Below the pieces are notes generated by a model. The model was not told where the DNA came from, did not search any database, and saw nothing but the letters and a program-made list of their open reading frames with translations. A DNA stretch of 64,000 bases from Pristiophorus japonicus (Eukaryota), in NCBI RefSeq assembly GCF_044704955.1, contig NC_091980.1:130758001-130822000 (forward strand), written 5' to 3'. Positions 11,484-61,664 of this stretch are shown here, in pieces (the first letter of the stretch is position 1; each line of letters starts with the position of its first letter). Both the position numbers and the translations under genes were made by a program.

Positions 11484-11551
11484 CAGGAGCTTGTGCAAGA
11501 TAGAGTGAGTTTTAGAACTGTGCAGGTGATAGTGAAATATAGATAGAGAAG

Positions 11552-14131
11552 ATGGCCTCCCAAGTGTGTCAGAACTACCACAAGGACTGTGAGGCTGCTG
11601 TCAACAAGCAGATCAACATGGAGCTCTGTTCCTCCTATGTTTACCTCGCCATGGTGAGTTGTGTATTCCTTGTTGCTGCATCTTGAAAAGTTGTTAATTC
11701 TCCAGTTCAATGAATTGGCTTTAAGTTGTATTTCTCTGGACTTCCTTCCCTGGGGGAGCACAGTCTTTGGGCAGTGAGAACTCCAGGTGTGTAATACAGG
11801 GGATCTTGTTGAGGTCATGGACTGCTCTCTACAGCAGCTGCCCTCTATTGAGGTTTAATATTGGAAACCAGCACAGCTGCTGCCTGAGTGTGTGACAGAA
11901 AAGCACAAACCTGGTCAGGGGCCTGTTGACCTGAGACAATGTTCAGTTTCAGTGGGGGACTGCAGTGAGTGAAATGTGGGTAGGTTCTCTGTAGTGCTCA
12001 TTAATTGGAGGTGATATACTGAGAATCCTGCTGTTGGAACCCTGCTCACTGCTGAGATCTCTTGCAATATTGTTGTGTAAACTACTGGAGTGGAGGATTT
12101 TTCTCACTCCATGTCCAAACTTTGATTAGAATGGAAGAAGAATCATTTCTATAATGCCTTTCACGACCTTGGAATATCCAAAGTGCTTTGTAGCCAATGA
12201 AGGAGTTAAGTGTAGTTACCTGTTATGTGGGAAATGCAGCAGCCAATTAGTGCACAGGATGCTCCCACAAACTGCAATGAGATAATGATCAGATCATCTG
12301 TTTTAGTGGTTTTGGTTGAGGGATAAATATTAGCCAGGACACTGCAGAGAGCTCCTTGCAGTAGTATCTAGAACATGGAGAAGGCTTGAGGGACCAATGG
12401 CTGACTCCTGTCATTCACTAAGATCATTGCTAATCTTGGATCTCAACTCCACCTCCTGCATTGTCCCCATATCCTTTGCTATCCAAAAATCTATTGCTCT
12501 TGAATATACTCAATGACTGGAATTCTCTAACCCAGGAGCTGTGGAGGCTCAAAGGGTTATCACATTGAGTGAAGAAATTCCTCCTCATCTCAGTCCTCAA
12601 TGACCCCTGGTTCTAGTCTCTCCAGCAAGGGGAACCATCCTCCCTGCATCCAATCCCTCAAGTCCTGTAAGAATTTTGTACATTCTGAATGACAACTCTC
12701 ATCCTTCAAACCTCTAGAATAGAGGCTCAGTCTGCTCAATCTCTCCTCCTTGATCTTTCACATCCACCTCATGACTGACACACTCTTGTGTGAATGACAG
12801 AAAGTAGAGGAGGTATTGCTTATCCAGGAGTAGAATTTAGTTTGACTGGACATGAAATATAATCCTGAACTTTAGTTTTATATGTTCAACCAGCAAAGGA
12901 AAAACTTTCATCATGCTATGGGGAGGTGAGGCTCAACTCCAATTGATGAAGTCAATGGCATTTTGCTAGTTTGCAAATGGTGTCTATCTTTTAAGAATTC
13001 ATTCACTCGGGGGAGAAATAACTCTTGCATTGTATATGAAGATCAAGGTCTAAATTGGCTGTCTTAATTTCTCTCTGCAGTCCTTCTACTTTGACCGGGA
13101 TGATGTTGCCCTGCGTCACTTTGCTGAGTTCTTCAAGGAGCAGTCACATGAGGAACGTGAGCATGCTGAGAAACTGATGCAATTCCAGAATCGCCGTGGA
13201 GGACGGATCATCTTGTCTGACATCAAGGTTTGGTTCAATTATCTAGTGGCCTTCTGTCTGGATACCCTGAGACCTGATTGTTTCAAATACCTCCTAAAGC
13301 AATTGATTCCATGGTTGTGGTAGTGGAATTCAGTAATTCTATATTCCTGTGACACATTGTTTATGGTAAAATGGACTTCTGGTTGCTTTTTTATCCTATT
13401 TTCCATTGTACTGTGTTTGGTATTTTGTTTGTTCCATTGCAAGTGAACTACCTGTGATTTTCCTCTTCAGAAACCAGAGCAGGATGAGTGGAGCAATGGT
13501 CTGGAGGCGATGCAGAGTGCTCTGCAGATGGAGAAGAATGTGAACCAGAGTCTGCTGGATCTGCACAAAATCTCCACTGGGAGCACTGACCCTCATGTAA
13601 GTTCCTCATGTGGGTTTCTGGGCAACTTGGAGGTGGTGGAACATTGCTATCCTTGAGCTGTTTCAAAAGTGCTCCATGCCCAATAGCTTTGTTTTTCGGG
13701 GGGGTGGTCTCTCTTGGATTCTTCAGGGGGTGGGGGAGAGGACCATTAAGTTGGCCAACTGTGGACATTGAGACATAAATGGGTCCAAATGTTTCCAGGA
13801 TCTAAGCTCACATTGCACAGTAGCTACTGGATCATTAGAGCAAATGTACATCAATTTCAATTGTGCTACCTGATCCTTCTCCACTCCGAGAGAATTAAAA
13901 TCCTAACTTTGGGGCGGATGCACTGATCCTTGATATCTGTTACTGGCCATAACTCATTTCCCTCTTCTCTTTCAGTTGTGTGACTTCCTGGAGACCCACT
14001 ACTTGGATGAACAAGTGAAGATGATCAAGAATCTTGGCGATCACATCACCAACCTGAAGAGACTGGGAGCCCCTGAGAATGGCATGGGAGTGTACCTTTT
14101 TGACAAGCACACTCTAGGGGAGAGTGACTAA
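11552..14131 (+). CDS. fth1-like: Ferritin heavy/middle-chain-like protein, copy B, intact, 176 aa, 4 exons
   Basis: Exons 11552-11653, 13081-13227, 13471-13596, 13976-14131, all GT-AG and phase 0, total 531 nt. Translation: [176 protein letters not shown]. Ferroxidase residues equivalent to human H E27, Y34, E61, E62, H65, E107 and Q141 are all present. Orthology to FTH1 is not established. Confidence 0.96.
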
Positions 14132-15814
14132 ACTGACTGGGATCAAGCTTATTGTGTTTAGTACTTGTATTTATATAATCAGGCCCCTATACTGTAGGGA
14201 ATGAAGGCTTGTGACTTTGTACAAAAAGAGCTAAAACCCATAACAGTAAATAAACTGTTCAACATTGGGCTGTGTTTTGTCACCTTGTAAATTTGAGTGG
14301 TTACTTATTTTTCATTTAACGTAACTTGGTTTCCATCAAACAAGAATTACACTGACCTGTGCAACATTTATTTGGGATTCAGTCCTATGAAATGTGTTTT
14401 CCCCTTGTGTAATGTCTATGTATTGACTGGGCCACTCAGGCACCTGTTATAAGATCTAAAATATTCAAGAATGTGTTTGGACAACTGACAGCCCCATGGG
14501 ATGTTGGCCCAGTGACCAAAACTCTGGTCAGAGGTATGTGTTGAGGTACAGAGATGTTTAGGAAGGCATGTCTCGAGCTTGGCACTGATAAGCTGTATAC
14601 AATTACCTGTTCCAACGATCTGTTTTTTACAAAGGAGACTTCAATCCAACAAGATGTAACATCTGCTAAACACAGGACCAATTTGTCAGTAGTTCATTGT
14701 TGCACCATTTCAGTCCAATGAAGAAACAGTCCTGGATTAGCTTCCTATTTAGTCTATCTGCCTTGTGAACGAACAGCAGTTTGTATTCAATCGCTGCAAT
14801 AGATCCTCTTCAGTAATGGGACTCACCACTGCTGCTATAGCCTTGCTGTTAAGCTTTGTAGGCAGAAAAGCAATATCTCAGCACACTGAACTCTGGGCAC
14901 TAGAATTGGGTGAGGAGGGAAAGCAACAGTTGTCATCAGCTTGCTGTCATAGCTTCAGTGCTTTGTGTGGATACCCTAGCGGTTCTGGGACAGCTTCTCT
15001 TCAGCCTGCTCCCCTAATGGTTGAATAACTTGCCAATACAACCTCCATTCACATGAATAAGGTATTGCAAGACTAATGATACTCCAACAAAATTTAATAC
15101 TTGGCAAGGTGTAAATGTATTTAATTCCACAAAGCAAAAGGCACAAGATGTTAAACCCTTTTCTGGCCACAATGCTTAAGCACTCAATTTATAAGCCTAT
15201 CAATTTTTTTTTCTTAGTACCGCTGTGAATGGATACAAATGGTACTGCTGCTCCAATAATCCAGTGTTTACAAGTTATTTTTATGAATTTAATTGAGAAC
15301 TGTGTTGAGTGCAATTAAATAGCCATGCACAGACATTCCAGGTTAATGTCTTGGCAACACTCAAGCGCCTTTCGGCTATCGATGTTACAAAATGTCATAT
15401 ATTGATGAGCCACAGTTCCACGAGTCGGCCTGGGTTTGCGTGCTGATGGTTTTGATGGCTTCATGTATCAACAAATCTCCAGCTCACTCAATGTGAAACT
15501 TTACAGGTGCTCGTGTTTTAAGAATTACTTACAATTTATAGCACAGGAAAAAGACCATTTGGGCCAACTGCGCCATTCTGTGGTTTATGCTCCATGTGAA
15601 ATATGTCCCACCCCACTTCATCTGGACCTATTAGCATATCCTTCTATTCCTTTCTCCTTTGTGTTGATCAAGCTTTCCCTTAAATGCATCTATGATCTTT
15701 GCATTCAGAGTTATTACTGCGAGTATCTCAGTAAACGCACTGCTGCTGCTGTGAATTTTCTGTTAAGCTGTGTGGGTAAAGAAGTGAGTAACAGCTTTCA
15801 AGACCCGCAATGTT

Positions 15815-60643: not shown

Positions 60644-61484
60644 CCTCAAATTCAAGATTCTTATCCTTGTATTAAAATCCCACCATGGCCCTTCCCTCAC
60701 CTCTTTTCCCAACACATTGATAATATCGGTGCTGTTTCCTGCTCTCACAATAAACTGGAACATTTAATTCACTATTTTCCCAATTTCCACCCTTCACTCA
60801 CCTTCACATTGTCCATTTCTGTCACTTCACTTCCCTTTCTCGACTTCTCTGTCTATCGTCTCAGTCTATCAGACAAATATCCAATGAGTTGTTTGGATGT
60901 TGCTTCAAACCCGCAGATACCTGCAAATGATCAACCCACTGAACAATCCAGAACTATTAAAAAAACACTGACTCGCAAACAACAGAGGATTCAATGAATC
61001 TTTCAAGGTGGCCATTAACTGGTCCAGGCAGAGCACGGTCGATAGGGTGTTCTCTCTGTCTGCCTGCCTCTCTTCTGCGGCTATTTCCGCGCGCGGGTAT
61101 CCCTGGATTGGGAGCACGCGGTGTCTGCCGGTATGCTTGAGGCTTTCCGTCATCGGAGGGCACCAGAGGGAGGGGAGCGCAGCGTGGATACAGGGAAATA
61201 ATGTAAAATTTTTAGTTTTTTTGTTAGTTTTGTCGTAATGTGGATCTGAAAGTTTATTCCCCCTTATAAAGGGAGCAGTTATGGTTTAAGTGTTTCCGAT
61301 AGCTGAATTAAACATTCCAATTAATTAGCCCAAAGAATAGAGAATCCAATTAAACCTGTGACTCTGGATATTTGAACTGTGTTTGAGAATAGTTAGGACA
61401 ATTGAGATCCTCATTGAGATGTCAACCAATGATGCTCATTCTTCAAAGATCTGACTGGCTCTGGGAGTCCATCTCCCTCCTCCC

Positions 61485-61589
61485 TTTACTTGATTGGTGC
61501 TCTGAGAAGATGCAACTTCTGATTGGGTATTGATCACTGTCACTCATCATCAAGAATGCCACACCCTGGATTATCCCTCAGTATAAATA
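61485..61589 (+). promoter_or_regulatory. Core promoter of ferritin F
   Basis: TATAAATA at 61582-61589; near-identical to the promoter of C. Confidence 0.65.
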
Positions 61590-61664
61590 TAGGTGTTTGA
61601 TATTAGTGAAATGTTACCTTTGTATTTCTACAAAGTTTTTACTTTGGAAAAATAAAATATTAAG

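Follow-up and report, generated by a model that had tools for sequence, protein, structure and literature searches.

Ferritin copies and their leaders

The stretch of DNA analysed here, referred to as the window, comprises 64,000 nucleotides (nt) of the sawshark Pristiophorus japonicus (assembly GCF_044704955.1, contig NC_091980.1, positions 130,758,001 to 130,822,000) and carries an array of ferritin genes, whose leaders an earlier note had described as free of the canonical iron-responsive element (IRE), the hairpin through which iron regulatory proteins (IRPs) repress vertebrate cytosolic ferritin mRNAs. Six ferritin genes, A to F, lie in the window, all on the forward strand and each of the four-exon type, and a tblastn search across the window detected no ferritin exons beyond theirs. 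Their order is C-type (A), B-type (B), C-type (C), D, B-type (E) and C-type (F). Of these, only B and E are intact; the reading frames or exons of A, C and D are damaged, and F is cut off by the window end after exon 1.

Copy B (11552..14131; exons 11552-11653, 13081-13227, 13471-13596 and 13976-14131) encodes 176 amino acids, has GT-AG introns and an AATAAA signal at 14249, and keeps E24, Y31, E58, E59, H62, E104 and Q138, which we take to be the ferroxidase ligands in human H-chain numbering. Copy E (51957..54532), likewise intact and 176 residues long, differs from B by a single nucleotide (A33S) in 531 coding bases, i.e. too little to reveal selection. The four-exon gene, the Pfam Ferritin domain, the presumed ferroxidase ligands and the lack of a leader peptide place both products among the vertebrate cytosolic H/M-type ferritins, with Pfam and PDB matches computed on P0007, a protein 96% identical to B, whose closest solved structure is frog ferritin 1bg7. 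The B/E protein has C26 where most family members carry Y, V162 in place of the usual E, and M141 as in all array proteins, a position occupied by other residues in the frog and fish types.

The remaining copies are damaged or incomplete. Copy A (548..6557; exons 2-4 at 548-691, 5964-6089 and 6393-6557, with exon 1 before the window start) has a stop codon and a 3-nt deletion in exon 2 and a GC donor 3' of exon 3. Copy C (21505..37114; exons 21505-21606, 31113-31259, 36518-36643 and 36959-37114) has a stop in exon 3, the substitution E24K, and long terminal repeat (LTR) elements within introns 1 and 2. Copy D (41477..47361; exons 41477-41566, 46148-46295, 46702-46827 and 47206-47361) has a 12-nt deletion in exon 1 and a +1 frameshift in exon 2, and no AATAAA within 260 nt past its stop. 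Copy F (61582..61766) is represented by its TATA box, leader and exon 1 (61665-61766).

The B promoter (11376..11481) contains three inverted CCAAT boxes at -100, -70 and -43 from a TATA box at 11476, and is homologous to the C and D promoters (shuffles reaching the observed score: 0/1000 for B-C and 1/1000 for B-D). The TATA-to-ATG intervals measure 70 nt in B and E, 77 nt in C and F, and 75 nt in D. Promoter and leader are identical between B and E, and the upstream regions of C and F differ by 0.6%, leaving only three independent leader types among the five intervals. The B interval (11482..11551) shows no IRE or remnant of one, no upstream ATG and no AG resembling a splice acceptor, and the TATA box and leader of E (51881..51956) match it letter for letter. 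The best remnant is found in D (TATA box and leader 41396..41476), where a ghost of an IRE retains the bulged C8 at 41439 and an upper stem of five pairs (41440-41444 with 41451-41455) that includes one two-sided change and no mismatch; its loop, CAAGGC at 41445-41450, keeps the C14-G18 cross-loop pair and A15 and has lost G16 and U17, and a 4-nt T-run interrupts the lower stem. In C (21422..21504) a more decayed version is present, with C8 at 21465, the loop CAAAGT at 21471-21476, a broken upper stem and a T-run inserted in the lower stem. F has decayed further, with C8 changed to T at 61625 and one upstream ATG.

None of the five intervals contains CAGTG. The idea that this absence is in itself improbable is ruled out, as 761 of 853 75-nt tiles of the window also lack the motif; it matters only because a ferritin leader should carry it. 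We therefore re-implemented the SIREs rules (algorithm from PMC2896125, motifs 1-21 from PMC12230718, motif 22 omitted), which matched none of the five intervals; on the forward strand of the window they gave 10 matches at 8 sites, the leaders being free of them, and within 1.5 kb upstream of the five ATGs a single site was recovered, a motif-16 match 1.1 kb upstream of D. The Rfam IRE model returned no match at E<=10 on the window, D or B, so that even the D ghost falls below covariance-model detection. Against a 22-nt IRE core derived from the entries for FTH1 and FTL in Volz 2021 Table S1, D scores 17/22 (1/2000 shuffles as good, a somewhat optimistic value since the comparison was devised after D had been inspected), a level reached by three 22-mers on both strands of the window. 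C scores 14/22 (50/2000), F 13/22 (234/2000, not significant alone), and B and E 11/22, which is chance level (1188/2000 and 1187/2000). Core match, SIREs rules and Rfam thus agree that the B/E leader holds neither an IRE motif nor homology to one.

These results bear out most of the earlier description: the missing CAGTGN motif, the ghost in D and the lack of any IRE similarity in the intact B and E are all confirmed, and of the remodelled elements proposed for C and F, that of C is supported and that of F is not significant when taken alone. What D has lost is the A15-G16-U17 triplet, which reads AAG in D and AAA in C and F, and which Volz 2021 gives as necessary for regulation. RNAfold singles out no leader.

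Probable decay and replacement of the element

The C and D leaders align well with each other (0/1000 shuffles as good), whereas the B leader aligns with those of C and D no better than shuffles do (104/1000 and 764/1000 as good, respectively). Two lesions are common to C and D: G16 has become A, and 3-4 consecutive T interrupt the lower stem. In coding exons 3-4 the two genes differ at a synonymous proportion (pS) of 0.16, with a ratio of nonsynonymous to synonymous proportions (pN/pS) of about 0.3 by a crude count, which indicates that both remained functional during the greater part of the period following their split. The shared lesions in turn imply that the IRE probably broke before the C/D split and before gene death. 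From this comparison of sequences, a working ancestor of C and D most likely already had a broken IRE, and the differences between D, C and F would represent later drift, in which F has lost C8 as well. An origin of the ghost by mere decay after gene death is ruled out by the common lesions and the pN/pS, and a derivation of B from D through further decay by the non-homology of their leaders. The B/E leader appears instead to have been replaced, being not homologous to that of C/D. Hence, the graded loss proposed earlier holds as a ranking by sequence and not as one series; two routes of IRE loss, decay in C/D and replacement in B/E, fit the leaders better.

The position of the ghost is informative as to where the ancestral element lay. 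It starts about 35 nt 3' of the TATA box, and transcription presumably begins about 30 nt after that box, which would make the ghost cap-proximal; published ferritin IREs start at transcript positions 2-83. The ghost is thus located where a cap-proximal IRE belongs, suggesting that the ancestral IRE was in the same exon 1 as the ATG.

Family, relatives and history of the array

A search with exon 2 yielded 576 matches, the top ones being shark ferritins with Pristiophorus japonicus first. Four protein clusters comprise 22, 138, 180 and 127 members, of which all 60 members listed are from sharks. The sawshark alone makes up about 35 of 120 listed clusters. In a midpoint-rooted tree of 68 rows (65 from 182 proteins plus B, C and E; no true FTH1 row), 50 elasmobranch rows form a clade, starred in the tree, adjoining a chimaera protein, and B, E and C fall inside it beside sawshark proteins. 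Within this clade proteins cluster mostly by species or order, with modest support, while P0115 and P0118 represent a second, more distant shark/skate ferritin type outside it. We note that coding sequences group by species and that leader types are seemingly common across orders, which hints at exon gene conversion behind old promoters. P0098 and P0097 are vertebrate-type ferritins that are filed as bacterial and come from contigs of less than a kilobase. In the tree P0098 falls with shark ferritin, and contamination is the probable source. Loci related to P0007 were found in 0/39 candidates in metagenome contigs and 0/33 in prokaryote genome contigs. The array is linked to a receptor tyrosine phosphatase through the fused gene model P0116; PTPRH is located near FTL. 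The C-terminal domain of P0001 is a divergent ferritin that ends a fused Heterodontus model outside the expanded clade, and could be a distinct gene next to the array, perhaps one that carries an IRE. Judged by its sequence relatives, the array appears to be a slice of an ancient elasmobranch ferritin cluster, and the ordinary ferritin genes of this animal are separate genes from it.

Further leaders come from relatives. Among 24 candidate sequencing runs (shares 0.05-0.13, without tissue labels), contigs of four were placed, on B only and at 80% likeness. They cover the B exons, leave the introns empty save for a repeat, and join at the predicted splice sites, confirming the gene model in relatives. 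Nine contigs of X2 exit exon 1 just before the ATG into a leader of D/C type (aligned by eye), with the same 3' stem, T-run and purine tract as D and C and a broken loop; its consensus has no CAGTG within 30 letters. In the bin with the B leader, cover is almost nil, at 5, 390, 209 and 0, where exon 1 reaches about 1e5 in three of the runs; as the contigs derive from relatives, these figures are uninformative on B expression, and contig depths cannot rank genes. Array-type cover is scarce in X8, a hint of tissue or species restriction.

Database gene models of sharks and rays that read the leader in frame supplied eight N-terminal read-through peptides, seven of which cannot encode a canonical IRE under any codon choice, the control being detected. 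Over the ten codons after TATA, the Heterodontus peptide needs 7 changes from B, 14 from C and 14 from D, and the Cetorhinus peptide 8, 11 and 15, respectively. Both are nearer to B than to C or D, so that the B-type leader looks, on this indirect evidence, older than the split of these shark groups. Leaders without CAGTG of the same two types are present in read-through gene models of other sharks and in spliced contigs of a relative. In addition, a protein search with the D open leader plus exon 1 revealed no paralog model reading through an intact IRE (19 matches among 40 candidates, a weak negative).

Within the window, segment 9840-20217 shares 98% identity with 50272-60646, segment 20483-23843 shares 99% with 60643-64000, and segment 1-9789 shares 92% with 30559-40297. 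The first (A-B) unit is without D, and the partner switches at a repeat bearing a 33-nt minisatellite. The B-C and E-F blocks diverge by only 0.5-1%, and may thus reflect a mis-assembly of haplotypes; the missing D and the partner switch at the repeat are nevertheless better accounted for by unequal crossing-over, which we infer from the sequence as the likely process.

Several transposable elements reside in the array. Intron 1 of C holds an LTR element (22410-29117) with two repeats of about 570 nt that are 90% alike, the start of which recurs in F at 62570; broken minus-strand frames within it (23180-25410) are envelope-like by eye and gave no Pfam match. A Gypsy-like LTR retrotransposon with LTRs of about 240 nt and an integrase core match occupies intron 2 of both A (1208-5847) and C (31779-36399), so that its insertion predates their duplication. 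A short LTR element in intron 1 of D (42158-44795) contains a protease-like frame, and its LTRs, about 237 nt in length, are 94% alike. Fragments of long interspersed nuclear elements with reverse transcriptase lie downstream of B (19200-20200) and E (59317-60650), the RVT_1 match of the second being below the cut-off.

Proposed control and role of the array

Based on the leaders, the intact copies and the published expression of a shark ferritin cluster, we propose, at a probability of about 0.6, that the array supplies bulk ferritin for the ovary under control of transcription and gene dosage, independently of IRPs; the start site, the lack of IRP binding, the expression of B and E and the oocyte role are inferred. 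The array would have branched off an ordinary ferritin gene with an IRE and escaped IRP control early. The C/D/F type would have had its IRE broken in place, through changed IRP-contacting loop letters and a T-run gained in the lower stem, and in the B/E type the entire leader would have been replaced behind an unchanged CCAAT/TATA promoter. Output would then be set by a tissue-specific promoter and copy number, such that a ferroxidase-competent cytosolic ferritin could be made in bulk at any free-iron level, most likely in the ovary, for stocking and buffering iron for very large eggs, with copies born and lost via unequal crossing-over. The uncoupling from IRPs suggested earlier is accordingly supported for the genes seen, which on sequence grounds would be unable to carry a working IRE, and for the family as a whole it is extrapolated from three leader types; the specialised role proposed earlier, with oocytes as an example, fits the ovary-specific expression reported for the shark cluster.

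The closest known system is that cluster. A Greenland shark preprint (bioRxiv 10.1101/2024.09.09.611499) counts 155 FTL-like and 179 FTH1-like copies and reports clusters that are syntenic with the white shark and date back 250 million years or more, and ovary-specific expression of the largest ferritin cluster; the words 'IRE' and 'iron' are absent from its main text. It likewise comprises many tandem full-length ferritin genes that are old in sharks, and is very likely the same as the one described here, an identity assumed from family size and clade; to what was reported there, the present analysis adds the ghost, both leader types and a probable loss of translational control. The lineage of teleost ferritin M, amphibian H/M and mammalian FTL has four exons, three introns, 176 residues and the ferroxidase ligands in common with the array, and teleost ferritin M is also multi-copy in several fishes. 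Salmon H and M isoforms all carry an IRE, with the M loop CAGUGA (PMC4117605), whereas the array IRE is broken or absent.

IRE-less ferritins are documented in other settings. Snail yolk ferritin of Lymnaea and Biomphalaria provisions eggs from an mRNA without IRE (PMC10799875), and has a signal peptide and a 42-residue insertion, neither of which is found in B/E, which align from residue 1 to cytosolic ferritins without insertion. The B/E product would be cytosolic in the storing cell and come from many tandem genes; the array ferritin may resemble snail yolk ferritin in function, by analogy only, and does not belong to that family. Among vertebrate ferritins, FTMT has no IRE (PMC13010531) and is intronless, retro-derived and mitochondrial, and FTHL17, germline-restricted and present in six copies in mouse (PMC7760355), is without ferroxidase activity; the shark genes, in contrast, have kept their introns, their promoter and the ferroxidase ligands, and their IRE was lost in place. 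Atypical invertebrate ferritins are mostly without IREs (PMC8395497), and the hadal snailfish has 14 fthl27 copies through tandem expansion, for which IREs are not a topic of the source (PMC10746142).

Several observations weigh against the proposed reading. The DNA evidence covers three independent leader types of probably more than 100 genes, and most ghost-bearing copies are dead. No contig represents B or E, most being less than 95% alike and hence from relatives, and the RNA nature of the runs is the tool's guess, none being on record as RNA. At the loop, the X2 consensus is poorly supported, with few contigs, an agreement of 0.72 and a median loose length of 15 out of 30 letters. Of the eight peptides, several may be other exons or partial leader, only two or three spanning the whole interval, and P0038 has one IRE-compatible window, which overlaps the TATA codons and, by our reading, falls on codons whose letters have to be those of the TATA box. 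The promoter region upstream of TATA (11353-11495) is matched by four contigs from three runs, one of them at depth 748; longer leaders or read-through thus exist in relatives, and read-through in a tandem array could explain them. Finally, the shark ovary is enclosed in lymphomyeloid epigonal tissue, so that 'ovary' need not mean oocyte.

Other explanations were considered. Working members might keep their IRE outside the window, the copies seen here being silent or dying edge copies with neutral IRE loss, in line with the three of six broken copies, the still fully paired upper stem of D, the near-identity of B and E and the small part of the cluster that the window shows. We regard this as unlikely, since the common lesions and pN/pS of C and D point to loss in working genes, a relative's contigs join exon 1 to a D-type leader without CAGTG, B-like leaders recur in two other shark orders, and the 40 protein candidates include no N-extended form with an IRE-type reading, although this last point is weak. 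To a very similar degree improbable, in our view, is an IRP-independent cluster that serves somatic cells (epigonal leukocytes, red cells, epithelia) in an antioxidant or iron-withholding capacity, as the hadal snailfish fthl27 expansion, which is expressed in most tissues and lowers reactive oxygen species. Shark ovary samples include epigonal tissue, ferritin (gene unspecified) is reported among the top transcripts of lanternshark eye and skin, and the array 3' ends have no motif like the cytoplasmic polyadenylation element upstream of the poly(A) signal; yet the one tissue statement found on the shark cluster is ovary-specific, and ferritin transcripts are described as abundant in vertebrate ovaries and eggs generally.

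An upstream exon could also provide B/E with an IRE, either by splicing or through a start further upstream, in agreement with the relatives' contigs on the promoter region and with the sawshark gene model P0124, which uses sequence like 11170-11319 as its terminal exon. The B TATA-to-ATG interval, however, has no AG with at least 11/17 pyrimidines, compared to 12-16 in nine true acceptors, the SIREs rules detect no match up to 1.5 kb upstream of B or E, and B, C and D have kept a common CCAAT/TATA arrangement. Such an exon, which the earlier note had named as what would overturn its claim, is therefore unlikely, and we grant it only a small chance. The frame upstream of the B/E promoter (11131-11319 and 51536-51724) matches the C-terminal exon of P0124, and splicing from an upstream array copy may terminate there. 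Least probable of all, to the point of being hard to credit, is persisting non-canonical binding of a shark IRP by the hairpin of the D type, or by a weak one in B. D does retain C8, the five stem pairs with their two-sided change and C14-G18, but G16 and U17 are gone, the 22 SIREs motifs do not include CAAGGC, the predicted fold has a different register and no unusual stability (z 0.1 to -1.4), and D is a pseudogene; in B, the sole C-bulge hairpin starts 19 nt after TATA, i.e. before the expected start site.

In conclusion, the array of shark ferritin genes and its ovarian expression are already known; no account of the IRE loss, of how old it is or of the two routes seems to have been published. 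Our literature search, which covered few subscription journals and is hence provisional, found no report of IRE loss in shark ferritins. More tentatively, and with the odds somewhat against so broad a claim, sharks and rays may possess a vertebrate counterpart of yolk ferritin, with more than 100 intron-bearing, ferroxidase-competent genes that left IRP control more than 200 million years ago by two routes and load iron into oocytes by dosage. The presence of an IRE is treated as defining for the cytosolic ferritin genes of vertebrates and even serves to separate genes from pseudogenes, and an old, intact and massively amplified IRE-less subfamily would break that rule. If true, no larger exception to the control of vertebrate cytosolic ferritin through IREs would be known, and a shark ferritin expansion that has so far only been counted would gain a mechanism. 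D, C/F and B/E offer a natural series for asking which IRE changes abolish IRP control, and the array raises the testable question of how iron gets into shark eggs, which are among the largest, and why copy number would be the means.

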